Shown: positions 25,155 through 62,480 of the stretch, one piece after another
Layout: each line of letters starts with the position of its first letter
Numbering within the stretch: the stretch's first letter is position 1
NCBI GenBank assembly: GCA_047974805.1
Contig: JBKECS010000066.1
Span: 27,133 to 91,132 of the forward strand
From: Nostocoides sp.
GTDB taxonomy: Bacteria; Actinomycetota; Actinomycetes; Actinomycetales; Dermatophilaceae
Direction of reading: 5' to 3'
Length of the DNA stretch: 64,000 nucleotides
Program-made: the position numbers and the translations under genes
The notes under the pieces: model-generated
Told to the model about the DNA's origin: nothing
The model's input: only the letters and a program-made list of their open reading frames with translations
The model's database searches: none

Positions 25155-28100
25155 TCAGCGTTTGCGGATCAGCAGGCGGACCCGCAAGTTGTCGCCGACG
25201 GTGGTTTCGGTGACCTCCTCGTCAGTAGCGTCGAGGTCGTCGAGGTGCATCGAGGCCGACAGCTGCTGCGACAGCGTCTCGGACATCACCAGGTCCCGGT
25301 GCTCCACGGTGGCCCTCCATACTGGTTCGGCGCCCACGATGGTGGCGGAAATCCGGTCGGTGACCTCGAGCCCGGCGTCCTTGCGCGCCTGCTGTACGGC
25401 ACGGACAAGGTCGCGCGCCACGCCCTCGGTGGCCAGCGCGTCGGTGACCTCAACATCAAGCACGACGAACCCGCCACCATTGAGCATCCCCGTCGCCGTG
25501 CCCGAGGAGTCGCCGTCACCGGCGACCATCTCCAGGGTGTACTCCCCCGGCGCCAACACGATGCCTCCAGCCGTCACTTCTCCGGCCCCCGACACTGACC
25601 AGTCGCCACTCTTGGCGCCGCGGATGGCCGTCTGGACGTCCTTGCCCAGCCTCGGGCCGGCGAGGCGGGCATTGACGGTCAATGCCTCAGTGACGCCGAA
25701 GCCGGCGGCGGCCTCGTCCGTGTCGGACATCAGGCGCACCTGCTTGACGTTGACCTCCTCGGCAATGATCGGCTCGAACCCGGCAAGCGCCTCGGGGTCG
25801 GCGGTGACCACGGTCAGGCTGGCCAACGGCAATCGAGTCCGCAGGCCGGCGCCCTTGCGCAGCGAGGAGGCCACTGAACACACCTCCCGGACCTTGTCCA
25901 TGGCAGCGACCAAGCCGTCGTCGCGGGGCAGGTCACCGGCCGAAGGCCAGTCGGTCAGGTGCACCGAGCGGCCACCGGTCAGGCCTCGCCAGATCTCCTC
26001 GGTGGTCAGCGGCAGGAGAGGCGCGGTGACCCGGCATACCGTCTCCAGCGTCGTATACAGCGTGTCGAAGGCCGCCTTGGTGCCGTCCTGATCACCGGAC
26101 CCGGTGTCCCAGAATCGTTCCCGCGAGCGACGCACATACCAGTTCGTCAGCACGTCGAGGAAGCTGCGCGTGGAGTCACACGCCCCGGCGATGTCGAAGG
26201 CGTCCAGCCGCTCGGTGGACTCGTGCACGTATGCCGCGAGCTTGGCCAGCAGGTACCGATCCAACGGGTCGTTCGAGGCCGTCGAACGCCTGGCCTCATA
26301 ACCGCTCTCCCCTAGTGCGTTGGCATAAAGGCTGAAGAAGTACCAGACGTTCCACAGCGGCAGCAGCACCTGGCGAACCCCGTCCCGGATGCCCTGCTCG
26401 GTGACGATGAGATTGCCGCCGCGCAAGATGGGCGAGGACATGAGGAACCAGCGCATCGCGTCCGCTCCGTCACGGTGGAACACCTCGGTGACGTCGGGAT
26501 AGTTGCGCAACGACTTGGACATCTTCGCTCCGTCGTTGCCGAGCACGATGCCATGGCTGATGCAGGCGGAGAATGCCGGACGATCGAAGAGTGCCGTGGC
26601 GAGGATGTGCAGGGTGTAGAACCAGCCACGGGTCTGCCCGATGTACTCGACGATGAAGTCCGCCGGGAAGTGCTGCTCGAACCACTCGGCATTCTCGAAC
26701 GGGTAGTGCACCTGGGCAAAGCTCATCGACCCGGAGTCGAACCAGACGTCGAGCACGTCCTCGACCCGGCGCATCGTCGAATTCCCGGTCGGGTCATCCG
26801 GGTTTGGCCGGGTCAGTTGGTCGATGTAGGGCCGGTGCACGTCCGGCTCACCGGTGGGGCCGATGGGGAGACGGCCGAAGTCCGCCTCCAGCTCCGCCAG
26901 CGAGCCATAGACGTCGACCCGGGGGTATGCCGGGTCGTCGGACTTCCACACCGGGATGGGGCTACCCCAGAACCGGTTCCGGGAGATGGACCAGTCGCGG
27001 GCATTCTCCAACCATTTGCCGAATTGGCCGTCCTTGACGTGCTCGGGCACCCAGGTGATCTCCTGGTTGAGCGCCACCATCCGATCCTTGAACTTCGTCA
27101 CCTCGACGAACCATGAGCTGACCGCCATGTAGATCAGCGGCTGCCGGCAGCGCCAACAATGCGGGTAGGAGTGCTCGTAGGTTTCCCGCCGGACCAGCAC
27201 GGTGCCGTCGGTGACACTGCCCCGTTCGCCACCGGCGGTGGCGGCGTTGAGATGGTCGAGAATCAGCCCATTGGCGTCCAGCACCTGGATGTTCTCGTAG
27301 TCGGTGACCGGGAAGGTGAACCTGCCGTCCGGACCCACCGGTACCACCGGAGCGATGCCCGCAGCGTCGGTGACGACCTTGTCCTCCTCACCGAACGCCG
27401 GCGCGATGTGGACGAGCCCGGTCCCGTCCTCGGTGGTGACGTAGTCCGCAGGCAGGATCTGGTGGGCGCCTGCGTGTCCGAGGAAGTAGGAGAACGGCGG
27501 GGTGTAGTGCGTGCCGACGAGGTCCGCTCCCTTGACGCTCGCGACGACCCGGTCGGCGACATCCTCACCCAGCTCGCGGGCGTAGGCGGCCAGCCGTTCC
27601 CGCGCCAACAGGTAACGCTCCTCCTGCCCCGTGGGACCGTCCGAGGTGACCACGACATAGTCGACATCGGGGTGCACCGCCATGGCGAGGTTGGACGGCA
27701 ACGTCCATGGGGTGGTCGTCCAGATCAGCGCCAGCGTCCCCGCATACGGGCCGTCGCTCAGCCGCAACCCAAGCGTCACGGCGGGGTCTTGCCGGGACCG
27801 GTAGACCTCCTCGTCCATGCGCAGTTCGTGGTTGCTCAGCGGGGTCTGGTCGTTCCAGCAATAGGGCAGCACCCGGAAGCCCTCGTAGACCCAGCCCTTG
27901 TCGTACAGCGACTTGAACGCCCACAGCACCGACTCCATGAAGGTGGGGTTGAGTGTCTTGTAATCGTGCTCGAAATCGACCCAGCGAGCTTGGCGGGTAA
28001 CGTAGGCCCGCCACTCGTCGGTGTACTTCAGGACCGAGGCGCGACACTTTTCGTTGAACGTGCCGATCCCCAGGTCGAGGATCTCCTCCTTGGTCTTGAT

Positions 28101-28481
28101 CCCCAGCTGGCTCATCGCCTCCAACTCGGCGGGCAGACCGTGAGTGTCCCACCCGAAGCGGCGTTCCACCTTGCGCCCACACATGGTCTGGTAGCGGGGC
28201 ACGATGTCCTTGACATAGCCGGTGAGCAGGTGGCCGTAGTGCGGAAGACCGTTGGCGAAGGGTGGGCCGTCATAAAAGACGAATTCGTTGGCGCCGTCGA
28301 CGCCGGCGCCACGGTTGTCGATGGAGGCCTGAAAGGTGTCGTCGGCAGCCCAGTAGGCAAGGACTCGTTCCTCGATCTCCGGGAAATTCGGGGAGGGAGG
28401 GATCACCGTCGAGGCGTCATGGCTGGCGGAGTGCTCGTCGGGGTCGCCAACGGGTCCGGTGCTCGCCTTGGGGTAGGCCAT
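25155..28481 (-). CDS. ileS: Isoleucine--tRNA ligase
   Basis: [14 protein letters not shown] (HIGH region) and KMSKSLRN (KMSKS). ATG at 28481 is preceded by AAGGAG. The track ORF over-extends to 28769 through the leader. Confidence 0.95.
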
Positions 28482-28790
28482 TGGTGGTGCTCCTTGGTGC
28501 GTTTCCTGCGTCGTCGGCTGCTTGTGCTGCACGAGGACGACGGATGCTTCCCCTGTTCGGGTCGGCACACCACCGCGGTACCACCTCGCTTGCCGTATGC
28601 CGTCGGCGTGCCCGCTGGTCGGCGGGGCGCGCAGCAGCATACGACCGCTTCGTATCGACGCTGTCGTGGCCGGAACGTCCGGTTCTAGTGAGGTGAGCAG
28701 ACCAGGAAGGCCTCCTCGCCCGTTCTTCCGAAGGGCTTGCCGCTGATAACGGCTCAAACGCCTGGGCACACTCTATCGGCCCTTCAAAAG
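28482..28790 (-). ncRNA. T-box leader of ileS
   Basis: The minus strand reads ...AGCGAGGTGGTACCGCGGTGGTG... (plus coordinates about 28565-28590), which is the conserved T-box sequence. A short hairpin GCCG-UUAUCAG-CGGC (about 28738-28752) displays AUC-A as a candidate Ile specifier. The 5' boundary is not defined. Confidence 0.7.
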
Positions 28791-28861
28791 GACCACCCAA
28801 TCTGCTCATCCCGGCGGCCGCTCGCCGGCGCTCGTGGTCAGTCCTGCAAGAATCACCGTCC

Positions 28862-29401
28862 ATGAGCGGGCTTGAACTGGGGCAGCAGGAATCGTGGCTC
28901 AGCCGAGAGGACCTCGACGCAGCCAGGGACCGCGTGCCGATGCTCTATGTCCAGGCGGTCCCGGTCCGGGTGGACCACACCGGGATCGTCACGACTATCG
29001 GGCTGCTCATGCGGGCCCGAGAGGACGGCACCGTGGGCCGTGAACTCGTCTCCGGACGAGTGCTCTACCACGAGCGCATCCGTGATGCGCTGCTGCGCAA
29101 CATCGAAAAGGACCTCGGGTCGATGGCGCTACCGTCCGTGCCGGTCTCACCGCAGCCGTTCACCGTAGCTGAGTATTTCCCGACTCCCGGGGTGACGCCG
29201 TATCACGATGTGCGTCAGCATGCCGTGGCCCTGGCGTACGTCGTCCCGGTCAGCGGGGACTGCGCGCCGAGCCAGGACGCCCTGGACTTGGCATGGGTGA
29301 CCCCGCGGGAGGCGAGCGACCCGTCGGTCGATGCGGAGATGTCTGGCGGCCATGGAGTCCTGCTGCGCCAAGCCCTGGCCCACCTCGGCTTCCCCATCTA
29401 G
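28862..29401 (+). CDS. DUF4916 / NUDIX-fold-like protein
   Basis: 179 aa, divergent from ileS. The family call comes from overall resemblance only (VPMLYVQAVPVRVD...GLLMRAREDGTVGRELVSGRVLYHERIRDAL). Confidence 0.5.
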   Translation: MSGLELGQQESWLSREDLDAARDRVPMLYVQAVPVRVDHTGIVTTIGLLMRAREDGTVGRELVSGRVLYHERIRDALLRNIEKDLGSMALPSVPVSPQPFTVAEYFPTPGVTPYHDVRQHAVALAYVVPVSGDCAPSQDALDLAWVTPREASDPSVDAEMSGGHGVLLRQALAHLGFPI

Positions 29402-29419
29402 ACGGTATGAGGTGACTGG

Positions 29420-30202
29420 CTAGTGGGTGCTGTGGTCGCGTCCCAGCCTGCGCAGGTGCGCCGCCGCGAGACCAACAAGGACCCCCAACCAGACGGCGAC
29501 GCTGATGGCATACGGTGTCGGATTGTCATGGCGGGCACCTGGTAGGCCCCGTCCGATGCTCGACCCGCTGAGTAGCCGCCATAGCCCGCCGAGGGGGTGA
29601 AGCACCAGGTACGCGCCATACTCAGGCACGATGAGCAGCGCGGCGAAAGACGCCCCAGCGGCTGTTGCGACCACGATGGCACGAGTTCCCGATTCGGCCG
29701 CCAGGAACAAGCACCACGCCAGCGCAACAGCGACACAGATGACTACGGGTCCCAACGCGGCAACCGTGAACATGTAGGCGGGTGGGATCATGGGTACTGC
29801 GGGATGACTGGTGAGGGCACGAAAGGCCATATCGCCCTGTGCTCCCAAGCCAGCCGAGAGCAGAACGACCAGCCATGATGCACACCCAGCGATAGCCGCG
29901 ACGAGGGCCTGGGCGATGGCGATTGTCCTTGGGTTCTCTCCGTGCTGGAGGCGCTCAGGGAACCGGCCACTGTCCAGGTCAGCACCGAGGAGCATCGCCA
30001 GCGCGGCCAGAGCGACGACAACACCTACCCCCGCACCGAGGAAGCCGCCATTGACGACGCCCCATTGACCTAGCGTTTCGGGGTCACCGTTGAGCCACAC
30101 AGGGGTGAGAACGGCGACCGAAGCCGCCATCAACGCGACGGGCAAGGCAACCCAGACAAGTCCTGGTTGGGCACGGGTACGCCACTCATTCCAGGTCGCC
30201 AT
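29420..30202 (-). CDS. Multi-pass membrane protein (ABC-2 permease-like), last gene of the island
   Basis: About 6 hydrophobic helices. Start chosen at MATWNEW (30202) so that it does not overlap the upstream gene. Confidence 0.55.
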   Translation of the reverse strand: MATWNEWRTRAQPGLVWVALPVALMAASVAVLTPVWLNGDPETLGQWGVVNGGFLGAGVGVVVALAALAMLLGADLDSGRFPERLQHGENPRTIAIAQALVAAIAGCASWLVVLLSAGLGAQGDMAFRALTSHPAVPMIPPAYMFTVAALGPVVICVAVALAWCLFLAAESGTRAIVVATAAGASFAALLIVPEYGAYLVLHPLGGLWRLLSGSSIGRGLPGARHDNPTPYAISVAVWLGVLVGLAAAHLRRLGRDHSTH

Positions 30203-30213
30203 GGCCAGCGTGC

Positions 30214-31404
30214 TCACGGACTGGCGCACGGCTGTTCGGCAATGGAAGCCACGCGCCATGCTCGGTCAGGATGCACCAGGCACGCGTGGAAAGCGTGTCC
30301 ATCGATATCGATAAGCAGGTCAGCGGCACGGATCGTTGGTGAGGAGTGCACGCTCACAATGGCGTTTCGGGTGGCCTGGGCGAAGTTGGCTGGCAGGCTG
30401 ACCATGATGACGCCAGCAGCACCCGTGACCGCGAGCTTGTCGGCGCTCGTCACCCGGCCGGCCGCATAGAACGTCAAGAACTGACGAAGGGTCGCCTCGG
30501 CACCTATGCCGCGCTGCACCTGGACATGGGTGGAATACCGCGCGGGGTACGGCACCGCCTCACCCATCGTCGGTCCGGCGCACATAAGAACCGCGGAGAC
30601 GATCAAGCAGCCTGAGACCCATCGTCTGCGCGTGCGTGTACTGGCGCGGGCCAAGCCCCACCGAGAATGCGCTGCCCCTTCGTAAGGGCGTCTCCCGACA
30701 AGGCGCAGTTCCTCGACCGGTTCCCTCGTGCGCAAGATCACGACACACGCCAGCCATGATCCTGCCACGCTCATCCCCGACAGGAGGCTCACGAAAACAC
30801 CGCTGCCGTTGCCCGGCGGAATCACCGAAACGGCCGAAATGGGCGACAGCGCTAGCACGAGAGTTCGACCGGACAATCGGGGACCAAACCACGCCATCAA
30901 CGGCACCAGGCACACTGTCACGGTCAACGCGACTGCGGCGGATCTCCTCCGGCCCCAGGACAGAACCGTCGCCCACCCGACAGCTGTAGGCACGGCAAGA
31001 TAGGTCAAGGTGATGATGGGCCAGGCCGCCGCGGAAGCGAATCTTTCCTCAGGCTGAGTGTGCAGGCGGGACGCCGCAAGCGCCGTGAGGGTGATGGCGA
31101 GTGTCGCGCCAGTCACGGTAAGCAGGAGGGTCAGGAATATTCGTGACCGGAAGGCACGCGCCGAAGTCCCGGCAAGATGGTTGCCGGTCTCCGCCGCCGC
31201 TTCCGTCGAGGCACCCCACACCGAGGCCACCAACAACACCCCAGCAGTCCCAGAGAACACCGACGCCACAGACGACGCCCCCGACAATGCAAGCTCCAAG
31301 CTTGGGGCACCAATTGCCCAGACAACACCACACGCGATCACCGTGGCGACAACAAGGACCCAAAAAGCGACCTCACGTCGCATCACCGCGACGGCGCCCC
31401 TCAT
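30214..31404 (-). CDS. Multi-pass membrane protein with an extra anchored C-terminal soluble domain
   Basis: About 7 helices, an Arg-rich loop, one more helix, then a ~120-aa non-hydrophobic domain (YPARYSTHVQVQRGIG...HPDRAWRVASIAEQ). The ATG overlaps the ATPase stop (ATGA at 31401-31404). Confidence 0.6.
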   Translation of the reverse strand: MRGAVAVMRREVAFWVLVVATVIACGVVWAIGAPSLELALSGASSVASVFSGTAGVLLVASVWGASTEAAAETGNHLAGTSARAFRSRIFLTLLLTVTGATLAITLTALAASRLHTQPEERFASAAAWPIITLTYLAVPTAVGWATVLSWGRRRSAAVALTVTVCLVPLMAWFGPRLSGRTLVLALSPISAVSVIPPGNGSGVFVSLLSGMSVAGSWLACVVILRTREPVEELRLVGRRPYEGAAHSRWGLARASTRTRRRWVSGCLIVSAVLMCAGPTMGEAVPYPARYSTHVQVQRGIGAEATLRQFLTFYAAGRVTSADKLAVTGAAGVIMVSLPANFAQATRNAIVSVHSSPTIRAADLLIDIDGHAFHACLVHPDRAWRVASIAEQPCASP

Positions 31405-32162
31405 GAAGGACCGGTGATCACAGCGTCGTCGGTTGGGGGATTCCTTCGACTGACGACGGAGAAATAGAGGTCTTCAAGGTTGGTCACGGCCGAAATGTCA
31501 GCCATCAACCCAGCAGCCAACATCTGACCGCGATTCAGTAGGGCGTAGTTGGTGGCTACCTGCTGGACCTCGTGCAAGAGGTGGCTGGAGACAATGATGG
31601 TCCGCCCTTCAGACCTCAGCTCGAGAATTAGCGTGCTCAGCCATCGGATCCCGAGCGGGTCCAGACCGTTCGTCGGTTCGTCCAGAATGATCAGACCCGC
31701 ATCAGCGAGCAGGACACGCGCGATCCCGAGGCGCTGGCGCATGCCCTGGCTGAACTCTCCCACGGGTTTGTTACCGACTTCGTCAAGACCGACCCGTTCC
31801 AACACCTCCTGGCAAACTGTCTTGGCCAGACGCTGAGTAACAAAGACGCTTCGCAGGTTCTCCAGCGCAGTGAGCCGATTGAACAAGCGTGGTTCCTCGA
31901 CCAGGCCGGCGACCCTCGGAGTGGGAGTGTAGGGCCGAACAGCACCACTGGCCCATGCGATGTGGCCCTGGTCGGGGCGCACGCTCGCCAGGATGCATCG
32001 CAGTAGCGTCGTCTTGCCCGAACCATTCGCCCCCACTAGCCCCAGACAAGCACCGCGGGCCACCTCGATGTCCACCGGGCCCAAGGTGAAGGCTGCGCCT
32101 CTGGACTTCACCAGTCCGGTGATCGTCAGGCCTCCGGTGCCGACGGGAGTTCCTGATGCCAC
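31401..32162 (-). CDS. ABC transporter ATP-binding protein
   Basis: Walker A GANGSGKTTLL, signature FSQGMRQR, Walker B LIILDEPTNGLD and H-loop VSSHLL. GTG at 32162 is preceded by GGAGGGGAGGG. Confidence 0.85.
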   Translation of the reverse strand: MASGTPVGTGGLTITGLVKSRGAAFTLGPVDIEVARGACLGLVGANGSGKTTLLRCILASVRPDQGHIAWASGAVRPYTPTPRVAGLVEEPRLFNRLTALENLRSVFVTQRLAKTVCQEVLERVGLDEVGNKPVGEFSQGMRQRLGIARVLLADAGLIILDEPTNGLDPLGIRWLSTLILELRSEGRTIIVSSHLLHEVQQVATNYALLNRGQMLAAGLMADISAVTNLEDLYFSVVSRRNPPTDDAVITGPS

Positions 32163-32701
32163 GTCACCCTCCCCTCCATATCGGCAAGCACGAATCCTCC
32201 CGATGAAAGGAACCGCACCGAGGCGGCCCCCGGGTACGTGTGCAACGTCTTCCCGGTTTGGTCGTAGATTGTCACTGCATGTCCAAACACCACAGTGCTC
32301 TTCGAGACGCGGCACTGCGCATCACCCGTGGCCTCGGCCGGCAGCGGAATCTCACGCTCCTTCACGGTGAAGACGTTCCCGATAACGGCGCGGGACCCGT
32401 CGACGCTGGTGCAAGCCCGCATCCCACGTGTCGGTGTTACCACCCAACCGGTCTTGGTCAGCCGCACCAAGTAGACCAGGCTTTGGGTCGGATCCTCCGT
32501 AAAGGCGACGATCTGGCCGGACTGATCACCGTCGTCCATCGTGATTGATGACTCAGGAATTGGCAGGGCATACCGATGTATGGATCCGTCGGCATGCAAC
32601 GACTCCAGGGTGCCCACGCCCCTGGCGTCTGACACCGTGCGCAGGGATCCCCCCGGATCAACCGACAGGATGATGTTCACACCCCCGTGGGTTGCTCCCA
32701 C
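32126..32701 (-). CDS. Orphan 191-aa protein (no signal peptide, no recognisable domain)
   Basis: ORF with a GTG start, beta-rich-looking sequence and acceptable third-position GC. Directly upstream of the ABC ATPase, with a short overlap. Confidence 0.45.
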   Translation of the reverse strand: MGATHGGVNIILSVDPGGSLRTVSDARGVGTLESLHADGSIHRYALPIPESSITMDDGDQSGQIVAFTEDPTQSLVYLVRLTKTGWVVTPTRGMRACTSVDGSRAVIGNVFTVKEREIPLPAEATGDAQCRVSKSTVVFGHAVTIYDQTGKTLHTYPGAASVRFLSSGGFVLADMEGRVTWHQELPSAPEA

Positions 32702-32901
32702 CGGACAGGCAACCTTCCCGATCCATACAACGCGGGGGCAGGGTCTGCCTCCAACCCGTGAGAATCGCCGGTCAACACTGCCGCGGGACCGTGCCTAACA
32801 CACGATTGTTGGACTCGTCAGCCGCGCGCCGTTTCTTGCCACACGGTAAGACCTGAACGAGTCACGCCCCGGGCCACACTATCGACCATGACGACCGCAC
32901 C

Positions 32902-33084
32902 CTAGCTGTCGGCGCGAAGGATGGTCGGCGCGGCGTCCAGCCAGGTCATGTCCACCGTGACCTCAGGGGGAGCCTCGCTGTCCTGCTGTCCAAACGTCAG
33001 GTAGAGGACGAAGGCTCCGACACAACTGGCAACGAAGGCACCAACGGCTAGCCGCACAATCCTGGGACTATCCGGTCGGGCCAT
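32902..33084 (-). CDS. 60-aa single-pass membrane protein
   Basis: MARPDSPRIVRLAVGAFVASCVGAFVLYLTFGQQ: one hydrophobic helix followed by an acidic tail. The ATG overlaps the end of the upstream peptide ORF. Confidence 0.4.
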   Translation of the reverse strand: MARPDSPRIVRLAVGAFVASCVGAFVLYLTFGQQDSEAPPEVTVDMTWLDAAPTILRADS

Positions 33085-33333
33085 GGCTCAGGTGCCGCCT
33101 CGCCGAGTTCAGTAGAGCCAAGAGATTGCACTCGCGTCGAGAGCTCCCATTGTCATACCAGGTGTTGAACCCCGACGCGGAATACGCACGTCCCGCAGCG
33201 CTCGCGCTGCAGGACTTGACCGTTGTTGAGTTGTACGAGGCAAAAGCGACGCCCGTACTGCCTCCCATCAAGGCAGCAACTGCCACCGTGACCGCAGCTG
33301 CCCCCCCTTTGACAAACGTGGGAAAATGTTCAT
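33068..33333 (-). CDS. Candidate small secreted peptide precursor, frame interrupted at a G7 tract
   Basis: GGGAGGG, then 4 nt, then ATG (33333) opens MNIFPRLSKGG. This frame stops after 22 codons. One extra G in the G7 run (plus-strand C7 at 33301-33307) would continue as AAAVTVAVAALMGGSTGVAFA/SYNSTTVKSCSAS...RREC...HGPTG, the frame of track ORF 33068..33286. That gives a classic Sec signal plus a ~56-aa mature peptide with 2 Cys. Confidence 0.4.
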
Positions 33334-33489
33334 AAATCCCTCCCGATTCTTCACAGTGATGGCCCGCGTCCCGGAGACACCATGCTCGTGGTTGACCCGG
33401 CGATCACCGGTGACGAGGTATGACGTTATCCCGCCGACGGCTGAGGTTCCACCGGAACGGGCCGTATCCACGATTCCGCCTTCCGGCCA

Positions 33490-33524
33490 AACACTGATGA
33501 GATCGTGCGATGGTCATCAGTGTT
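33490..33524. promoter_or_regulatory. 11-bp perfect inverted repeat between plsC and the peptide island (terminator or operator)
   Basis: AACACTGATGA (33490-33500) / TCATCAGTGTT (33514-33524) with a 13-nt spacer. It is AT-rich for this genome and lies 18 nt after the plsC stop. Confidence 0.4.
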
Positions 33525-33541
33525 GCAGGCGAAGGCCGACC

Positions 33542-34249
33542 TCAGACCTCGAAGGGCGGGGCCGGGGCGGTGCCGCCGAGCCGGGCGGGTAGGAAGCGCA
33601 GGTCGTCCCCGGTCAATGGCGGGTAGCGATCCTGTTGTCCGCGCAGTTGGGCGATCATCACCTCACGCAGCCGCGCGGTGGCCTCCTCGGCATTGTCCGG
33701 GCGAGCAACGGTCAACGGCGCTCCCACGGTGACGAAGATCGGCACGTTGGAGCGGCCGAGCCGTTTCGCCTTCACGCCCTTGGTCCACAACCGCTGCGAC
33801 CCCCAGACCGTCGTCGGCAGGATCGGCGCCCCTGCAGCCTGGGCCATCCGGACCGCCCCGGACTTGAAAGCCTTGATCTCCAGCGACTGCGAGATAGTCG
33901 CCTCCGGGAAGACCCCGACGATCTCGCCGTCCTTCAACGCATTCACCGCCGCCCGGAAGGCCCCCATCCCGGCCGCCCGATCCACCGGGATGTGGCGCAT
34001 CGATCGCAACAGCGGACCCGCGACCGGATTGGCGAAGACCTCCTCCTTGGCCATGAATCGCACCATCCGGCCGGCCGGACGCGCCGCCAGGCCCGCATAG
34101 AGGTAATCCAAATAGGAAATGTGGTTGATCGCCATGACCGCCCCGCCGCTGGCCGGCACGTTCGCGCCTCCGCGGATGTCGAACTTCAGCCCTTGTGCGA
34201 GGAACACACTCCTGGCAAGACCGATGACCGGCGCGTAGACCCATTCCAT
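33542..34249 (-). CDS. plsC: 1-acyl-sn-glycerol-3-phosphate acyltransferase
   Basis: NHISYLD (HX4D) and VGVFPEATIS motifs. Start chosen at MEWVYAP (34249). Confidence 0.85.
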   Translation of the reverse strand: MEWVYAPVIGLARSVFLAQGLKFDIRGGANVPASGGAVMAINHISYLDYLYAGLAARPAGRMVRFMAKEEVFANPVAGPLLRSMRHIPVDRAAGMGAFRAAVNALKDGEIVGVFPEATISQSLEIKAFKSGAVRMAQAAGAPILPTTVWGSQRLWTKGVKAKRLGRSNVPIFVTVGAPLTVARPDNAEEATARLREVMIAQLRGQQDRYPPLTGDDLRFLPARLGGTAPAPPFEV

Positions 34250-34337
34250 AGCCCGAGCGTAGGCCACACCGGCCAGGCCGTGCTCGGGTCGCGAACCGGA
34301 TTGGGGACGGCGTGAGGCTTCTGGGAAACTGGCGGAC

Positions 34338-36992
34338 ATGACCACAGGCCCCACCGCATCGTCCCGGATCCCCGAGCGCCCCTCGCTTGATGGACTCGAG
34401 GAGAAATGGGGCCAGGTATGGCGCGAGAACGACACGTATGCCTTCGACGCCGCCGCGGCACTGGCCGCCGAGCGCGAGCAGATCTGGGCCATCGACACTC
34501 CCCCGCCGACCGCCAGCGGATCCTTGCACCTCGGTCACGTGTTCGGCTACACCCAGGCCGACTGCATCGCCCGCTTCAAACGGATGAAGGGGCTGCACGT
34601 CTTCTACCCGATCGGGTGGGATGACAACGGCCTGCCGACCGAGCGACGGGTGCAGAACTACTACGGGGTGCGCGGCGATGCGAGCCTGCACTTCGACCCC
34701 GACTTCACCCCGCCTCAGACCGGCGGTGAGGGCAAGTCGACCAAGGCCGCCGATCAGGTGCCGATCAGCCGCCGCAACTTCATCGATCTCTGCGAGATCC
34801 TCACCGTCGAGGACGAACAGACCTTCGAGGACACCTTTCGTCGGCTCGGGCTGAGCCTGGACTGGAACGTCCAGTACCGCACAATCGACGAGCATTCCCG
34901 GGCCACCGCCCAGCAGGCATTCCTGCGCAACCTTGCCCGTGGCGAGGCATACCAGTCCGAAGCCCCCGGCCTGTGGGACGTCACTTTCCAGTCCGCCGTC
35001 GCCCAGGCCGAGCTCGAAGCCCGGGATTATCCGGGCGCCTACCACCGGGTCGCCTTCCACACCGGCACTGGGCCTACGGACGATGCGGTGTACATCGAGA
35101 CCACTCGTCCGGAGCTGCTGCCTGCCTGCGTCGCGCTCATCGCCAACCCGGAGGATGAGCGGTACACGCACCTCTTCGGCACGACCGTGACCTCGCCGGT
35201 GTTCGGGGTTGCCGTGCCCGTGCTAGCCCACCCCGCGGCGGAGATGGACAAGGGCGCCGGCATCGCCATGTGCTGCACGTTCGGTGACCTCACCGACGTG
35301 CAGTGGTGGCGCGAGCTGCAGCTGCCGACCCGTTCGATCATCACCCGCGCCGGTCGGATCGCGCCGGAGACCCCGAGCTGGATCACCTCCGCCACCGGTG
35401 ACGCAACGTATGCCGATATGGCCGGCAAGACCGTCTACTCCGCCCGGGCAGTCGTCGTCGATGCCCTCCGAGAGTCCGGCGATCTGGACGGGGAGCCGAA
35501 GGCCACCCAGCGCAAGGCGAACTTCTTCGAAAAGGGCGACAAGCCGCTGGAGATCGTCACCTCTCGGCAGTGGTACATCCGCAACGGTGGCCGCGACGCC
35601 GATCTGCGCGCGGAGTTGGTCGCTCGCGGTGAGGAGATCGCCTGGCACCCGGCATACATGCGCTCCCGGTACGAGAACTGGGTCGGCGGCCTCAACGGGG
35701 ATTGGCTGGTCTCCCGGCAACGGTTCTTCGGGGTGCCCATCCCGGTCTGGTATGCCGTGGGGGCCGACGGCGAGATCGACTACGAAACCCGGATCGTGCC
35801 GGGCGAGGATGCGCTGCCGGTCGACCCGGCGTCCGAGCCGGCGCCCGGATTCGAGGAGTCCCAGCGCGGCATACCGGGCGGGTTTGTCGGGGACCCTGAC
35901 GTCATGGACACCTGGGCGACGAGTTCGCTGTCACCGCAGATCGCCGCCGGATGGCGTGGTGGGCCGGGCTACAACCCGGAGCTGTTCGCCAAGATCTTCC
36001 CCTTCGACCAGCGGCCGCAGGGCCACGACATCATCCGGACCTGGCTGTTCGCCACCGTGGTGCGGGCCCACCTGGAAGACGGCACGATCCCGTGGACGAA
36101 CGCGACGATCAACGGGTGGATTCTCGATCCGGACCGCAAGAAGATGTCCAAGTCCAAGGGCAACGCGACGACCCCGATCGACCTGCTCATCGACCATGGC
36201 ACCGACGCGGTCCGCTATTGGGCCGCGGCGGCACGTCCGGGCACCGACACGGCGTTCGACACTGCGCAGATGAAGGTCGGGCGCCGCTTGGCCATCAAAT
36301 TGCTCAACGCGAGCAAGTTCGCGCTCGGTATCGGCGCTGATGACGAGATCACCGTGCCGTCGGTTGATGACGCCTTGCCTGCCGTCACCCACGCGCTGGA
36401 TGTGTCCATGCTCGCCCGTCTGGCCGGAGTGGTCGAGGCGGCCGGCGCGGCATACGAGGCCATGGACTACGCCCGGGCTCTGGAAGTCAGCGAAACCTTC
36501 TTCTGGAGCTTCTGCGACGACTACCTGGAGCTGGTCAAGGACCGCGCCTACGGCGGTCGCGGCGAGCAGGGTGCACGCTCGGCACGGGCTGCCCTGCGGC
36601 TCGCCCTCGATGTGCAGCTGCGGCTGTTCGCGCCGGTGCTGTCCTTCGCTGCCGAAGAGGTCTGGTCCTGGTTCCACGACGGATCAGTGCACGTGGCGAA
36701 CTGGCCAACGCCGGCGGAGCTCCGCCCCAGCGTGGACGCAGATCCGGACATGTTGCCCGTCGTGGCGGCAGCACTCTCAGGGATCCGCAAGGCCAAGTCG
36801 GACGCCAAGCTCGGGATGAGGGCCGAGGTGGCCTCGATGACGCTGGTCGCCTCGCGCTCGGACGCGGATCGGATTGCTGCGGGCGAGGCTGACCTACGCG
36901 CGGCCGGCCGGGTCAGCGGCGAGTTCACCCTCGTCGACGGTGAGCATCTCGAAGTCAAGGACACCGTCCTCATCCCGGTCGCAAAACCCTGA
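34338..36992 (+). CDS. valS: Valine--tRNA ligase
   Basis: PPPTASGSLHLGHVFGY (HIGH-type) and KKMSKSKGN (KMSKS). 884 aa. Confidence 0.95.
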   Translation: MTTGPTASSRIPERPSLDGLEEKWGQVWRENDTYAFDAAAALAAEREQIWAIDTPPPTASGSLHLGHVFGYTQADCIARFKRMKGLHVFYPIGWDDNGLPTERRVQNYYGVRGDASLHFDPDFTPPQTGGEGKSTKAADQVPISRRNFIDLCEILTVEDEQTFEDTFRRLGLSLDWNVQYRTIDEHSRATAQQAFLRNLARGEAYQSEAPGLWDVTFQSAVAQAELEARDYPGAYHRVAFHTGTGPTDDAVYIETTRPELLPACVALIANPEDERYTHLFGTTVTSPVFGVAVPVLAHPAAEMDKGAGIAMCCTFGDLTDVQWWRELQLPTRSIITRAGRIAPETPSWITSATGDATYADMAGKTVYSARAVVVDALRESGDLDGEPKATQRKANFFEKGDKPLEIVTSRQWYIRNGGRDADLRAELVARGEEIAWHPAYMRSRYENWVGGLNGDWLVSRQRFFGVPIPVWYAVGADGEIDYETRIVPGEDALPVDPASEPAPGFEESQRGIPGGFVGDPDVMDTWATSSLSPQIAAGWRGGPGYNPELFAKIFPFDQRPQGHDIIRTWLFATVVRAHLEDGTIPWTNATINGWILDPDRKKMSKSKGNATTPIDLLIDHGTDAVRYWAAAARPGTDTAFDTAQMKVGRRLAIKLLNASKFALGIGADDEITVPSVDDALPAVTHALDVSMLARLAGVVEAAGAAYEAMDYARALEVSETFFWSFCDDYLELVKDRAYGGRGEQGARSARAALRLALDVQLRLFAPVLSFAAEEVWSWFHDGSVHVANWPTPAELRPSVDADPDMLPVVAAALSGIRKAKSDAKLGMRAEVASMTLVASRSDADRIAAGEADLRAAGRVSGEFTLVDGEHLEVKDTVLIPVAKP

Positions 36993-37002
36993 CCATCCTT
37001 GG

Positions 37003-37062
37003 TTGAGTGTGCGTAACTCGCCCGGGATTCGGTCGGGTCCCGGGCGAGTTACGCACACTCAA
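37003..37062. terminator. Bidirectional terminator hairpin between convergent genes
   Basis: Perfect 25-bp inverted repeat TTGAGTGTGCGTAACTCGCCCGGGA (37003-37027) / TCCCGGGCGAGTTACGCACACTCAA (37038-37062) with a 10-nt loop. Confidence 0.7.
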
Positions 37063-37067
37063 CGTTG

Positions 37068-37745
37068 TCAGGCGGGGGTCGGCGTGGCCGCTGCCAGGTT
37101 TCCGCGGGCACGCACGGCCCGTTCACCGGTGGGTTCAACGCAGATCCACGGGATGTCCCAGCCGGCCAGCCCCAGCGCGTGTCCGGCGAACTCGTCTCGG
37201 CGAAGGACCCGGACGGTCCCGCTGGCCGGTTCATAGACCTTCAGTGCTCGATCCCCGTGGCCGGGGAGCACGAGAACGACGTGCCGAGGCAGGTAGTTGT
37301 TGCCGACATAGAGCACTCCGGGCTCCCCGTCGGCAACGACATCGACCAGCCGGTCATAGTCGGCGACCAACCCCTTCCGGTCCCCAACACGGCACTGGTC
37401 GACGGCATACCGTGCGCCAAAGCGGGCCGCACCGAGTTCCAGCTCACGCTTTGCCCCCCAAGGCGGGGTCCCCAGGACCCGCGGCCAGGGTGGCTGTACT
37501 GACCGACCGAGGATCCACAGGCCGTTGGTTCGCCGCATGACGATCCGCTCGTATGCCGCGAACCGTTCCGCCGGGGTTTCTCCCGCCGGGGAGGTTGGAA
37601 GGACAGGCTGGCCGGTCTGTATCCACGAGGCGAACATGGGGTCGACGAGCATGCGGGCCACGGTCAGGCAGGCAGAACCGCAGGTTGTCGGAGACTGTTG
37701 AACCGGGCCGGTGGAGCCGATGGTCAGTCGGAAGGGTGTCGACAC
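37068..37745 (-). CDS. Conserved hypothetical protein, possible papain-like cysteine peptidase fold
   Basis: 225 aa. N-terminal QQSPTTCGSACL resembles the Gln/Cys active-site region of C39-like peptidases, with a later candidate His in LPRHVVLVLPGH. This is inference only. Confidence 0.45.
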   Translation of the reverse strand: MSTPFRLTIGSTGPVQQSPTTCGSACLTVARMLVDPMFASWIQTGQPVLPTSPAGETPAERFAAYERIVMRRTNGLWILGRSVQPPWPRVLGTPPWGAKRELELGAARFGARYAVDQCRVGDRKGLVADYDRLVDVVADGEPGVLYVGNNYLPRHVVLVLPGHGDRALKVYEPASGTVRVLRRDEFAGHALGLAGWDIPWICVEPTGERAVRARGNLAAATPTPA

Positions 37746-37764
37746 GGCAAGCAGCCGTGTCGAC

Positions 37765-39042
37765 TTAGGCCGACCGCTTGCGCGGAGAACGCTTCGGCGG
37801 CTCGTCCTGGCGCACGATGGTCGGCAGGACGTTCTTCAACACGACGTCCCGGTTCACCACGACCTTGGTGATGTCATCTTCGCTGGGCACGTCGAACATG
37901 ACCGGCAGGAGGACCTCCTCCATGATCGCCCGAAGTCCGCGGGCGCCGGTACCTCGGGACAGCGCCTGCTCCGCCACGGCCTCTACCGCGTCCTCGGTGA
38001 ACTCCAGCTCGACCCCGTCGATCGCGAACATCTTCTGGTACTGCTTGACCAGCGCATTACGGGGCGTGGTGAGGATTTCGACGAGGGCCGCCCGGTCCAG
38101 CGGGCTCACCGTGGTGATGACGGGCAGGCGCCCGATGAATTCGGGGATGAGGCCGAACTTCATGAGATCTTCGGGCATGACGTCGTGGATGGATTCGGCC
38201 AAGTCCATCGGTGTGTGCAACTCCGAGCCGAAGCCCAGGCCCTTCTTGCCGTTGCGGGACTCGATGAGCTTCTCCAGGCCAGCGAAAGCGCCGCCCACGA
38301 TGAAGAGCACGTTCGTCGTGTCGATCTGGATGAACTCCTGGTGGGGATGCTTGCGCCCGCCCTGGGGAGGCACCGAGGCAGCGGTCCCCTCGAGAATCTT
38401 CAGGAGTGCCTGCTGGACTCCCTCTCCGGAGACGTCCCGGGTGATCGAGGGATTCTCCGACTTCCGGGCGATCTTGTCGACCTCGTCGATGTAGATGATC
38501 CCGGTCTCGGCCTTCTTGACGTCATAGTCCGCAGCCTGAATCAGTTTGAGCAGGATGTTCTCGACATCCTCACCGACGTAGCCGGCCTCGGTCAACGCCG
38601 TGGCGTCGGCGATCGCGAAGGGCACATTGAGCATCTTGGCCAGCGTTTGCGCTAAGTAGGTTTTTCCGCACCCTGTCGGCCCGATGAGCAGGATGTTGGA
38701 CTTGGCGATGTCGACGTGGTCAGCGTCGCGCTTGGCGCCGCCCTCGCCGGCCTGGATGCGCTTGTAGTGGTTATAGACGGCAACCGCTAGGGCACGCTTG
38801 GCCACGTCCTGGCCGATGACGTATTGCTGGAGGAACTCGAAGATCTCGCGGGGTTTGGGCAGGTCGGCAAGCTCGAGGTCGGTGGTCTCCGCAAGTTCTT
38901 CCTCGATGATCTCGTTGCACAGGTCGATGCATTCGTCGCAGATGTACACACCTGGTCCGGCGATGAGCTTCTTGACCTGTTTCTGCGACTTGCCGCAGAA
39001 GGAGCACTTGAGCAAGTCGCCACCGTCACCAAGTCGCGCCAC
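37765..39042 (-). CDS. clpX: ATP-dependent Clp protease ATP-binding subunit ClpX
   Basis: Zinc ribbon CSFCGKSQ...CDECIDLC and Walker [10 protein letters not shown] prefer the GTG at 39042 (GGAAGG 9 nt upstream) over the GTG at 39048. Confidence 0.95.
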
Positions 39043-39211
39043 GAGCACAGCCTTCCGTCGTCACCTTCTGCGGGTGGAGCACCCATCGGCCCCGACGGTA
39101 CCCGCCGCCGGCGGCCTTAGCCTCCATTGAAACCCCGGTGTCGCGTCTGCGTCTGCCCTTGTCAGCTATCAGCGCAACCTCGTCCGGCTGGGCACCGACG
39201 GCGATCTGCGT

Positions 39212-39895
39212 CTAGTTGCTTGCCTTGCGGGAGCTGAGCACCTCGTCGATCAGGCCGTACTCCTTGGCCTGGTCGGCAGAGAGGATCTTGTCCCGCTCGA
39301 TGTCCTGTTTGACCTGCTCGGGGCTACGACCACTGTGCCGAGCGATGGTGTCCTCGAGCCAGGTACGCATACGGAAAATCTCGTTGGCCTGGATCTCGAC
39401 GTCTGAGGCTTGACCGCCACCACCCTCGACGGCAGGCTGATGGATCAGGATGCGACTGTTCGGCAGGGCGAACCGTTTGCCAGGTGCTCCGGCACCGAGC
39501 AAGACGGCGGCCGCCGACGCGGCCTGGCCGATGACGAAGGTCTGCACGTCCGGCCGGATGTATTGCATGGTGTCGTAGATGGCCGTCATGGCGGTGAACG
39601 ACCCGCCCGGGCTGTTGATGTACATCAGCACGTCACGGTCGGGGTCTTGGGACTCCAGCACGATGAGCTGGGCGATGATGTCATCCGCCGATGCGTCATC
39701 GACTTGGACCCCGAGGAAGATGATCCGGTCCTCGAACAGCTTGGTGTACGGGTCCTGGCGCTTCATCCCATAGGACGTGCGCTCTTCGAACTGCGGCAGG
39801 ATGTATCGCCCGCGCGGAGCGGACCCGGTGTAGACGCCGGATGGGGTGGGGAAGGTCATGGGCATGGTGTCCTTGTCGTCTCGCTGGCCGGTCAC
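39212..39895 (-). CDS. clpP2: ATP-dependent Clp protease proteolytic subunit 2
   Basis: [21 protein letters not shown]...[11 protein letters not shown]...[11 protein letters not shown]...ILIHQP. The GTG overlaps the clpP1 stop (GTGA). An internal ATG (MPMTF) is an alternative start. Confidence 0.92.
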
Positions 39896-40524
39896 TGCTT
39901 CGAGCCGGTGTCCGCGGCCGCGTCGTCCTGGCGTCCGGGGGCATCCTGCGCCCGGGTGATGACGTGATCGACGAAGCCGTAATCGAGGGCTTCGTGCGCG
40001 GTGAACCAGCGGTCCCGATCGGAGTCTTCGGTGATCTTCTCCAGGGTCTGTCCGGTGTGTTCGGCGATGAGTTCAGCCATCTGACGCTTCATGGCCAGGA
40101 GGAGTTCAGCCTGGATCTTGACATCCGTTGCGGTTCCGCCGATACCACCCAGGGGCTGGTGCATGAGGATCCGTGCGTGCGGGGTGGCATACCGCTTGCC
40201 CTTGGTGCCGGCAGACAGCAGGAACTGCCCCATGGAGGCAGCCATGCCCATGGCCACGGTAGCCACGTCGTTCGGCACCCACTGCATGGTGTCGAAGATG
40301 GCCATTCCGGCGGTCACCGACCCACCGGGAGAGTTGATGTAGAGCCAGATGTCCTTCTCAGGGTCTTCGGCGGCAAGCAGCAGCATCTGTGCGCAGATGG
40401 CATTGGCGTTGTCGTCGCGCACATCCGATCCGAGGAAGATGATGCGCTCCTTGAGGAGCCGATTGAAGATGTGGTCATCGAGGCCGGGCTGGGGCCCGGT
40501 CGCGGCGATGAGGGGCTGCGTCAC
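39892..40524 (-). CDS. clpP1: ATP-dependent Clp protease proteolytic subunit 1
   Basis: [21 protein letters not shown]...[12 protein letters not shown]...[11 protein letters not shown]...ILMHQP. Confidence 0.93.
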
Positions 40525-40629
40525 AGGTACTCCTTGGCAGGCCGAGCTGCCTGCGCTGCTGAGATGGATCTGTTAGGTGTCAGTGACCCTAACGCTCCAC
40601 CACCGGCAACGATTCCGATTGGCCGCTCT

Positions 40630-40643
40630 GTTCGCCGTGAGCG
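40630..40643. promoter_or_regulatory. ClgR-type operator candidate upstream of clpP1P2
   Basis: GTTCGC-CGTGA-GCG matches the GTTCGC-N5-GCG motif reported for Streptomyces ClgR, as I recall it. It lies about 105-120 nt upstream of the clpP1 start. Confidence 0.35.
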
Positions 40644-40753
40644 CAAGCATGACGGCACCGACCAGGAACAAGCGGTCAGAATGCCCGTGGACGGCCGCAT
40701 GGGTGGACGGTCGCATGGGGTCGCGGCACGCTGGCCCGACAACTTCGCAAGAG

Positions 40754-40800
40754 AACCCGGAGGTTCGCTGGGGAAACTTTGCCTTGTGAACCTCCGGGTT
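40754..40800 (-). terminator. Stem-loop terminator after the MFS gene
   Basis: Perfect 13-bp inverted repeat AACCCGGAGGTTC (40754-40766) / GAACCTCCGGGTT (40788-40800), 25 nt after the stop at 40825. Confidence 0.55.
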
Positions 40801-40824
40801 TCCTTGTCACGGCTGTATCCGCGC

Positions 40825-42135
40825 CTAGTCCGTTGACCGTGCTGTAGAGACCGCCGGAACCGCAAAGACGGCGATGAGGAGCAACACGACGACAACGCTG
40901 AACGCGGGCAGGATGCCGACCCGGTCGCCCAGGTGCCCCAACAGCGGCGGTCCGGCGATGAAGGCGCCATAGCCGATGGTGGCGACGACGGACATCCGTG
41001 CTGCGGCACGGCGCGGGTCATCGGCGGAGGCACTCATCCCGACCGGGAAGCCCAGCGCGGCGCCCACTCCCCAGATCCCGGCGCCGAGGTAGGCCGCCCA
41101 GACCGGGCCGACGATGACCAGGACCGCCCCGACGATGGCGATGAGGAACGTTGTCCGAACCACCGTGACTCGCCCGTACCGATCGATCAACGAGCCACCG
41201 AGCATCCGGGCGAGGGTCATGAACAGCAGGAAGACCGCAAAGGCAAGGGTGCCGGCCCACCTCGGCACGCCGTAGCCATCGACGAAGCCCACCGCGAGCC
41301 AATCGTTCGCGGTCCCCTCGGTGAATGCCGCGGCGAAGACGACCATCCCGATGACCAACGTCCGCCGCTCCAACCACGCCGAACCCGCTTCGATGTGCTC
41401 TCGACGACGAGACTTACCCGCTCGCTCTCCCCCAGGCACACTGGCCTGACCGACGTCACCCATCTCACTGGCCTGACCGACGTCACCCATCTCACCGGAG
41501 TCAGCCCAGCCCAAGACCCCCTCGACGGTCCAGCTTGGGCCCGTCCCCGCGGGCACCTCGACCGGCGCCGGGGCCACCTCATCCTCGGGCAGGAACCGCG
41601 CGGTGACCCACCAGCCCAGCCCGACGATGACGACCCCGACAACCGCCAGGTGCCCAAGGATCGAGACGCCGGCATAGGACATCGCGGCCCCCACCAACGC
41701 GGCAACGACCGTGCCCGCGGAAAACCCCGCGTGGTAACTGGGCATCACGGTCCGTCCCAGATCTCGCTCCACCGTCGCGCCCTCGAGGTTCATCGCCACG
41801 TCCCACACCGCTACCCCGATACCGAGCAGCGCCAGGCTTGCTGCGAGCACCCACCTGTTGTCGAGGGTGGTGATGCCGAGCCCGATCCCCACGTTGCTCG
41901 CGAGGGCGGTCGCCAGGCCGATCCGGATGGCGCCCACGACACCTACTCGGGTGGCTAGGCGTCCCGACAGGGGCAAGGCGATCAACGACCCGACCGAGGT
42001 GAAGAGCAGGGTGCTGCCGAGTTCGCCAGGGGTTAGCGCCAGCGCGTGTTTGGCATCGGCAATCCGGGCTGCCCAGCTGGCGAAGCACACGCCGGCCAAG
42101 GCGAAGACGACGAGAACCGCCCGGTGAGCCGCCAC
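40825..42135 (-). CDS. MFS transporter with an enlarged central loop
   Basis: Two blocks of 6 hydrophobic helices, separated by a charged loop that contains a 9-aa tandem duplication. Confidence 0.8.
   Translation of the reverse strand: MAAHRAVLVVFALAGVCFASWAARIADAKHALALTPGELGSTLLFTSVGSLIALPLSGRLATRVGVVGAIRIGLATALASNVGIGLGITTLDNRWVLAASLALLGIGVAVWDVAMNLEGATVERDLGRTVMPSYHAGFSAGTVVAALVGAAMSYAGVSILGHLAVVGVVIVGLGWWVTARFLPEDEVAPAPVEVPAGTGPSWTVEGVLGWADSGEMGDVGQASEMGDVGQASVPGGERAGKSRRREHIEAGSAWLERRTLVIGMVVFAAAFTEGTANDWLAVGFVDGYGVPRWAGTLAFAVFLLFMTLARMLGGSLIDRYGRVTVVRTTFLIAIVGAVLVIVGPVWAAYLGAGIWGVGAALGFPVGMSASADDPRRAAARMSVVATIGYGAFIAGPPLLGHLGDRVGILPAFSVVVVLLLIAVFAVPAVSTARSTD
41441..41494. repeat. Perfect in-frame 27-nt tandem duplication inside the MFS central loop
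   Basis: CTGGCCTGACCGACGTCACCCATCTCA occurs at 41441-41467 and again at 41468-41494, encoding EMGDVGQAS twice. Confidence 0.9.
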
Positions 42136-62323: not shown

Positions 62324-62480
62324 CGTGTCTCACAATCGTCATCGGCTGCCACAAGCATCCGCCCTGGTGGCGACCCGTGTGGGGCGAGTCATACCGCCCA
62401 CACCAGTGGGGGCGCTAAGCCCCGCCTAGAGTGGCGAGGAACATCTCAATCTACTGAACGACGTCGAAGGGTTTCACATC

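Follow-up and report, generated by a model that had tools for sequence, protein, structure and literature searches.

Within a 64,000-nucleotide stretch of Nostocoides sp. DNA (contig JBKECS010000066.1; hereafter, the window), an island of 4140 bp lies at positions 29402–33541, between the stop codon of a DUF4916 gene and that of plsC. All of the island's open reading frames (ORFs) are on the minus strand; the feature as a whole, comprising a gene cassette and the intergenic region upstream of it, is assigned no strand. Judged by its homologies, the island is a partly degraded copy of a cassette of five genes that is rare among actinobacteria and has not been described before; in intact copies the genes follow the order g1, g2, g3, g4, g5 with tight or overlapping junctions. 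The products are a secreted protein (g1), a membrane-anchored extracytoplasmic protein (g2), an ATP-binding cassette (ABC) ATPase (g3) and two different permeases (g4 and g5). Sequence comparison shows that g1 and g2 of the window are pseudogenes and that g3–g5 are intact. A decayed copy of a conserved cassette that includes an ABC-2 heterodimeric exporter is the description of the structure that we put forward with high confidence.

A preliminary description, made from the same sequence, had delineated a minus-strand, low-GC island between the conserved ileS/DUF4916 and plsC/valS blocks, and its composition and flanks are as stated there. The ABC ATPase, the 396 amino acid (aa) multi-spanning protein with a soluble domain, the ATGA overlap between the two genes and the six-helix protein of ~260 aa were likewise recovered, as was the lack of any regulator, modification enzyme or integrase gene in the island. 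Six genes had been listed, however, and the island holds five, two of them pseudogenes.

Remnants of the secreted and membrane-anchored proteins

Intact g1 encodes a precursor of ~145 aa with a cleavable, AXA-type Sec signal and a mature part of ~110–120 aa (~12 kDa), which is predicted to be all-beta and carries one conserved cysteine near each end. In the window, a remnant of this gene could be delimited from sequence and reading frames at 33068–33344 (minus strand). A Shine-Dalgarno sequence (GGGAGGG, 33344–33338) precedes an ATG at 33333, and the frame opened by this codon ends after 21 codons at a stop at 33270–33268. The frame that encodes the signal peptide, which runs to a second stop at 33068, is reached only with one G added to the run of seven at 33307–33301, eight being needed; the run (C7 on the plus strand) falls within the region coding for the signal peptide. 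The repaired product, 88 aa in length, matches residues 1 to ~70 of intact g1 proteins, with 42% identity over 60 aa to that of cassette L086 (E 4e-5; our comparison loci carry the prefix L) and 37% over 51 aa to that of Knoellia. Some 70 C-terminal residues, including the conserved C-terminal cysteine, are missing through a 3' deletion. What had been described as a Sec-type peptide precursor at 33333–33068 is a frameshifted, truncated remnant with no intact ORF. Neither the repaired peptide nor the intact g1 proteins match PF09683 or any bacteriocin model. The g1 of Knoellia remsis, annotated at 72 aa, is a truncated gene call; its frame extends upstream to give a precursor of ~145 aa with a signal peptide.

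Intact g2 comprises an N-terminal membrane anchor and an ectodomain of ~330 aa with a conserved CxxC and two further invariant cysteines, four in all. The corresponding pseudogene in the window, for an extracytoplasmic protein of ~355 aa, spans 32126–33084 (minus strand) and was traced by tblastn through its stop codons and then across a switch of frame. Searches with intact g2 proteins (L086, L089, L090 and L092) follow one frame from 33036 to ~32686, passing through a TAG at 32904–32902 and a TGA at 32820–32818, and then, with a frameshift at ~32695–32680, continue in another frame to 32153 (E 1e-27 and 4e-23). The conceptual translation keeps 18 of the 22 family-invariant columns (82%), shows an internal gap of ~49 aa relative to L086, and has lost the second cysteine of the CxxC. 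The 60-aa single-helix protein and the 191-aa orphan, previously taken for two genes, prove to be parts of this one g2: the former corresponds to its N-terminus (45% identity over 44 aa) and the latter to its C-terminal two-thirds (27–30% identity over ~230 aa).

Sequencing error was considered as the source of the frameshift in g1 and the stop codons in g2, and rejected. Two contigs of an independent Logan assembly (run SRR30067232) match the window, one exactly over 27369–30283 and the other (L082) over 30590–38364 with one synonymous difference. Because this assembly gives the same G7 run and the same stops, the lesions are regarded as genuine; two of them are, moreover, base substitutions. 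A reading of the in-frame TGA and TAG codons as selenocysteine or pyrrolysine was discarded on the grounds that these codons align to ordinary, non-cysteine positions in the relatives. The G7 run is a possible slippage tract, but phase variation there was judged unlikely to matter, since the product restored to frame would still be truncated, without its C-terminal half.

A profile of four g2 sequences matches BamB (E 5e-5 to 5e-4) over only ~45 residues; the match is gone when the profile is built from eight sequences, and Pfam finds nothing. Two members of the family have been named automatically as PQQ-like propeller proteins in UniRef. Together, the short match and the automatic names suggest a propeller fold for the ectodomain, which the broader profile and Pfam do not confirm. 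Sequence searches of the PDB with g1, g2, g4 and g5 returned nothing significant save this short BamB match.

The ABC transporter encoded by g3–g5

The ATPase g3 (31401–32162, minus strand; 253 aa) matches PF00005 with E 3.5e-29, and its GTG start codon is preceded by GGAGGGGAGGG. Its Walker A (G44–T52), signature (S138-Q-G-M-R-Q-R) and Walker B (D161–E162) motifs and the histidine of the H-loop (H194) are all in place. A pair of glutamates, E89 and E90, occupies the Q-loop position within G-L-V-E89-E90-P (an 'E-loop'), and HMMER aligns E90 to the glutamine of the ABCA4 Q-loop. Among 203 NCBIfam models the best is TIGR03740, for lantibiotic-protection ATPases, at 172.9 bits, which does not reach the cutoff of 309.75; the second best is drrA (122 bits, cutoff 312). 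Against solved structures, the nucleotide-binding domains of ABCA proteins rank first, and NosF is the best stand-alone bacterial match (E 2e-32). The protein is identical over its 253 aa to an NCBI entry titled 'MAG: ABC transporter ATP-binding protein [Nostocoides sp.]' (MAG, metagenome-assembled genome) and is 46–56% identical to the g3 proteins of the other cassettes.

The start of the permease gene g4 (30214–31404, minus strand; 396 aa) overlaps the g3 stop codon (ATGA, 31404–31401). The protein is laid out as a six-helix ABC-2 (type V) transmembrane domain, a disordered arginine-rich linker, a seventh transmembrane helix and a C-terminal domain, and it matches the g4 proteins of intact cassettes over its full length (31–40% identity, E to 1e-53). 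A model calculated with AlphaFold2 (AF2) from a ten-sequence alignment has a mean pLDDT of 80.7. When the transmembrane domain of this model was compared with known structures using Foldseek, NosY was the best match (probability 1.00, TM-score 0.51–0.62), followed by PmtCD and by ABCG2, G25, G1 and G5–G8. The Foldseek E-values are modest, 4e-3 at best; by these matches the transmembrane domain has the six-helix fold of ABC-2/type V exporters. The C-terminal domain (~110 aa, alpha+beta; about 30552–30217, minus strand), as modelled with AF2, weakly matches NTF2-like proteins (Foldseek E ~0.5), and the positive-inside rule and a conserved cysteine pair place it, by prediction, outside the cell. 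The window departs from Logan contig L082 at one position only, 30607, in a cysteine codon of g4 (TGC versus TGT). As this position lies 18 nt from the contig end, either polymorphism between strains or an artefact of the assembly end could account for it.

For g4 there is no match in Pfam, in NCBIfam or in PDB sequences. HMMER returned ten relatives only from 1.84 billion representative proteins, of ~330–400 aa apart from one 113-aa fragment that is 99% identical to the C-terminal domain of the query. By these searches the family is small and has no link to larger ones.

The second six-helix permease, g5 (29420–30217, minus strand; 260–265 aa), was recognised from its six hydrophobic segments. 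Translation probably starts at a GTG at 30217, giving 265 aa and an overlap with the g4 stop codon (GTGA, 30214–30217); alternative starts are an ATG at 30202, chosen by the gene caller (260 aa), and an ATG at 30259 (a 279-aa ORF). The protein is 38–43% identical to g5 of intact cassettes. Neither g4 nor g5, from the window or from intact cassettes, has a match in Pfam (E<=0.1) or NCBIfam (E<=1), and the two families are barely alignable with each other (hhalign probability 14%), as is expected for diverged ABC-2 subunits.

Scans of all the window products with Pfam, NCBIfam and PADLOC recognised the ATPase alone, which bears out the earlier statement that the remaining products belong to no described family. 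In the model searches and structure predictions that the preliminary description had proposed, g3 was matched (PF00005), no PF09683, ABC2_membrane or other model was found for the rest, and g4 gave a NosY-like, type V transmembrane domain, the NTF2-like match of its C-terminal domain being weak. In intact cassettes, too, g1, g2, g4 and g5 match no Pfam-A or NCBIfam model.

Recurrence of the cassette and its insertion in the window

The cassette family was reached through the ATPase, by collecting a clade of relatives at 42–67% identity and then examining their gene neighbourhoods; the closest of these ATPases, P0002 (67%), is on a short contig of 2.2 kb. The same five-gene order was seen at nine unrelated genomic sites in four actinobacterial orders, with g1 not present in every copy, and the pairwise matches between window products and cassette proteins have E-values of 1e-17 to 1e-87. 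The products are called at 72–149 aa (g1), ~350–360 aa (g2), ~236–245 aa (g3), 365–423 aa (g4) and 242–265 aa (g5). Intact cassettes occur in Knoellia, Nocardioides, Paractinoplanes and several metagenome contigs. The hosts and sites include Knoellia remsis, Phycicoccus endophyticus, a Nocardioides MAG, Paractinoplanes rishiriensis, a Solirubrobacteraceae MAG and the locus L083-85. All five genes are carried by the cultured K. remsis and P. rishiriensis, and g2–g5 by P. endophyticus. In K. remsis an intact cassette separates carA from carB in the operon for pyrimidine biosynthesis (L089 5362–9669, PVTI01000005.1), and in L083-85 it adjoins ISL3/rve transposases and a toxin-antitoxin pair. In three of the cassette products, conserved cysteine pairs are predicted to face outward. 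Directly upstream of the P. rishiriensis cassette (L094 470–2450) are a gene for a sigma factor of the extracytoplasmic function type (Sigma70_r4_2), a small ORF adjacent to it and a gene for a Beta-prop_PLL protein; this arrangement may provide a regulatory link, which the other cassettes lack.

Other routes to the family yielded little. A word-indexed homologue search with the 396-aa g4 alone found no match, and one with a concatenated alignment of g1, g2 and the g4 C-terminal domain found one protein; in both, low-complexity words swamped the candidates. Scanning metagenomes with the ATPase alignment returned mostly ABC-2 ATPases from outside the family, and L096 was the only locus with a g2 homologue among the matches listed. 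No match to g4 or g2 was found by tblastn in a plasmid collection.

The island has a GC content of 63.3%, versus 66.7% for the window as a whole, and is the lowest of all windows of its size in the 64 kb (minimum at 29401). GC at third codon positions (GC3) is 0.70–0.74 in its ORFs and 0.83–0.86 in DUF4916, plsC and valS. The three single-line GC values counted by hand in the preliminary description are exact (46.7%, 58.3% and 71.7%). The compositional anomaly is real but modest; two more stretches of the window, 38001–41000 and 60001–63000, come near the island in GC (63.2–63.8%).

On one side the island is bordered by the DUF4916 gene (28862–29401, plus strand; PF16262, E 2e-83), with ileS on its far side, and on the other by plsC (33542–34249, minus strand), for a PlsC-type acyltransferase, followed by valS. 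A scan for DUF4916 across one genome per GTDB species gave 80 loci, mostly from Intrasporangiaceae/Dermatophilaceae, at 66–75% identity. Within 10 kb of DUF4916 in these 80 genomes, no homologue of the non-ATPase island products or of the intact family members was found. The presence/absence comparison proposed earlier has in this way shown that the cassette is not universal syntenic core. In many of the relatives DUF4916 directly adjoins plsC–valS (e.g. L002, L006, L012, L013 and L042). Elsewhere the same junction holds unrelated cargo (L063 7321–9843, L027 10537–14836 and L069 10528–16070; also L070, L048, L023 and L004), such as a fused ABC_membrane and ABC_tran exporter in a Janibacter MAG, an AI-2E transporter in Oryzobacter terrae and an IS110 transposase in a Micrococcales MAG. 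This variability in other Intrasporangiaceae suggests that the DUF4916–plsC junction is an insertion hot spot. From the absence of cassette genes near DUF4916 in the 80 relatives, together with the GC minimum and the depressed GC3, we conclude that the island was acquired horizontally and inserted where the gene content varies among relatives.

The borders of the island showed neither att-like direct repeats on the two sides nor any tRNA, integrase or Rfam match. An inverted repeat with 26-nt arms and a perfect 11-nt core (33475–33539, minus strand) lies directly 3' of the plsC stop codon. This hairpin is probably the plsC terminator, which would separate transcription of plsC from that of the cassette.

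Likeness to known systems, pattern of decay and proposed function

In architecture and fold the transporter resembles LanFEG, DrrABC and NosFY, and it is a member of none of them; we regard it as a new variant of the ABC-2 heterodimeric exporters with novel accessory proteins. In LanFEG, the ATPase LanF has an E-loop, with glutamate in place of the Q-loop glutamine, and is combined with two distinct six-helix subunits (bioRxiv 10.1101/2025.10.09.681468; PMC5786555). The cassette shares with the LanFEG/CprABC group (e.g. NisFEG and NukFEG) an ATPase gene of ~230–250 aa followed by two different six-helix permease genes, in the order F-E-G. The E-loop glutamate is also shared, although this feature is not discriminating, and TIGR03740 is the best curated model of g3. 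The accessory extracytoplasmic proteins that accompany the pump would be comparable in role to LanI and LanH. Among the differences, the g3 score falls well below the TIGR03740 cutoff, g4 and g5 match no LanE/LanG (MutE/MutG) or ABC2_membrane model, and the cassette g4 is extended by a further helix and an NTF2-like ectodomain. Genes for lanthipeptide precursors, modification enzymes or two-component systems are absent from the island and from the Pfam-annotated flanks of the nine cassettes. The secreted product is a protein of ~120 aa rather than a peptide, and the host is a high-GC actinobacterium.

Similar comparisons can be drawn with further systems. With NosDFY(L), the complex that serves in the maturation of nitrous oxide reductase, the cassette has in common a type V ABC-2 dimer with extracytoplasmic partners, in addition to the NosY and NosF matches described above, but g4 is only 16–18% identical to NosY and the cassette shows no link to denitrification genes. 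DrrABC of M. tuberculosis, with one ATPase and two distinct six-helix permeases, has the same layout as g3–g5. PmtABCD, the exporter of phenol-soluble modulins, exports secreted toxic peptides and protects its producer. Both share the ABC-2/type V fold, PmtCD being among the Foldseek matches of g4, and both differ in having no permease-fused NTF2-like ectodomain and no partners resembling g1 or g2. The lactococcin 972 locus (lclA, lclB and an ABC ATPase) was the analogy offered in the preliminary description. It resembles the cassette in gene order only, with a Sec-dependent product encoded upstream of an ABC system. No component matches in sequence, g1 is about twice the size of lactococcin 972 and has two conserved cysteines, and the 25 best NCBIfam matches of g3 include no lactococcin-972 ATPase model. 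In place of two ABC-2 permeases, lactococcin 972 loci encode one large membrane partner that spans the membrane many times. On each feature tested, the cassette falls outside the lactococcin-972 type.

The window copies of g3, g4 and g5 are full length, align end to end with intact relatives, and keep 52 of 53, 6 of 7 and 8 of 8 family-invariant columns, respectively, or 66/68 together, versus 18/22 in g2 (Fisher p = 0.03). Were lesions as dense in g3–g5 as in g1–g2 (3–5 per 1208 bp), these 2743 bp should carry 7–11 of them; none is seen, with a chance of 1e-3 to 1e-5 under a uniform model. A similar state is found in L083-85, where g1 is inverted and truncated beside the ISL3/rve transposases, g2 is frameshifted and g3–g5 are intact (L083 4574–5992); this structure is identical in three separate samples, an NCBI MAG, a JGI metagenome and an ENA assembly. 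The cassette of Phycicoccus endophyticus (L092) is without g1.

We favour, with moderate confidence, a reading of the island as a horizontally acquired cassette copy that has lost g1 and g2 and kept a pump of the effector/self-protection kind. Two copies of g3 with one each of g4 and g5 would make up a type V exporter whose permeases form a heterodimer, on the pattern of LanF2EG or DrrA2BC. On its outer face, the NTF2-like domain of g4 and the anchored g2 could handle secreted g1 or some molecule bound up with g1. In this view g1, partnered by g2, would be exported as an effector that is antagonistic or costly in some other way. The pump would serve as a self-protection or export device for it, kept as orphan protection once the effector was lost. 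An effector with a protective pump is favoured because the pump is kept while g1 and g2 decay, in two independent cassettes. As a statement of function, this part of the proposal is tentative. An analogy to toxin-plus-immunity systems is possible, and the decay pattern, not gene order, is what it would draw upon. The earlier label of an undescribed export or immunity module is a fair one for the cassette family.

Several observations weigh against this proposal. No experimental or sequence evidence of g1 toxicity exists, g1 matches no bacteriocin, toxin or other family in database searches, and the AF2 model of g1 (mean pLDDT 45.6) is too poor for a fold search. The E-loop does not discriminate in favour of LanFEG, because the motif x-[ILV]-E-x-P is present in 118 of the 120 nearest ATPases, generic ABC-2 ATPases included. 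The absence of lesions from g3–g5 is suggestive of selection but not proof of it, since the decay is recent, as seen from the 82% of invariant columns that g2 still keeps. The decay pattern, too, occurs in only two or three cassettes. The window pump may itself be silent: no sigma-70-type promoter was found, in a scan that is not informative for actinobacterial promoters, and the upstream premature stops could cause polarity.

The ABC-2 dimer could instead be a NosDFY-like machine that does ATP-driven conformational work on g2 and the NTF2-like domain at its outer face, maturing, loading or assembling g1 or an envelope component rather than exporting g1; the window copy would then be a functionless relic in which the pump genes have not yet decayed. 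The ranking of NosY and NosF among the structural matches favours such a machine, as does the joint loss of g1 and g2, and the cysteine pairs on three predicted outward-facing products suggest an extracytoplasmic complex. NosD (the beta-helix protein), NosL and NosZ families are, however, absent by Pfam from the island and from every cassette, and NosY forms a homodimer where the cassette encodes two different permeases. An obligatory g2 would also predict decay of the pump, whereas g3–g5 are free of lesions both here and in L083-85. We regard this alternative, the chief rival, as unlikely. The persistence of g3–g5 without g1 and g2 could conceivably also reflect a generic, DrrABC-like pump that expels a small molecule or a lipid, with g1 and g2 as unrelated neighbours. 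The one-ATPase, two-permease layout and the rank of drrA as second-best model are in keeping with it, but the drrA score is far under its cutoff, g4 has a dedicated extracytoplasmic domain, and g2 and mostly g1 travel with g3–g5 in fixed order with overlapping junctions at nine sites in four orders; a pump of this kind seems distinctly improbable.

Least credible is an intact small, Sec-dependent, unmodified bacteriocin of the lactococcin-972 type, accompanied by two small orphans and an ABC immunity transporter. With one G added, the ORF does start at an ATG behind a good Shine-Dalgarno sequence and encodes a plausible signal peptide whose end reads AFA|SYN, and an ABC transporter lies downstream. 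It is nonetheless frameshifted in two independent assemblies and amounts to an N-terminal fragment of a ~145-aa family, both orphans are pieces of one g2 pseudogene, and neither PF09683 nor any NCBIfam bacteriocin model is matched, the membrane proteins having no NCBIfam match at all. We consider this reading hardly tenable.

More speculatively, and with somewhat less assurance than the effector and protective pump proposed above, the cassette could be an unrecognised actinobacterial system in which an ABC-2 heterodimer with a permease-fused NTF2-like ectodomain, together with a membrane-anchored, disulfide-bonded g2, would export, present or neutralise g1. Its four families other than the ATPase are all new to the databases. 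It might then represent either a new protein-bacteriocin/immunity module or a new NosDFY-style extracytoplasmic mechanotransducer, with the window as a 'cheater' end-state in which the effector is lost and the pump kept.

Because the locus is a decaying copy, its own interest is moderate; a half-dead island is of limited interest alone, and the wider cassette family is the more interesting. In high-GC genomes, as the locus illustrates, short ORFs that look like orphans can turn out to be fragments of pseudogenes. The family is a rare, coherent cassette that extends over four or more orders of actinobacteria, and Pfam and NCBIfam have models for just one of its five protein families, the ATPase. 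Its transporter joins traits of LanFEG, NosFY and DrrABC to an ectodomain, fused to a permease, that is new. Nostocoides, previously named Tetrasphaera, is a key phosphate-accumulating organism of wastewater treatment. If g1 is an antagonistic effector, the cassette would represent a new pairing of a protein toxin with ABC immunity in environmentally important Actinomycetota, a question that is directly testable because cultured strains carry copies of the cassette. Cassettes that have repeatedly lost g1 and g2 but kept the pump would, in that case, form a natural record of producer-to-cheater transitions.

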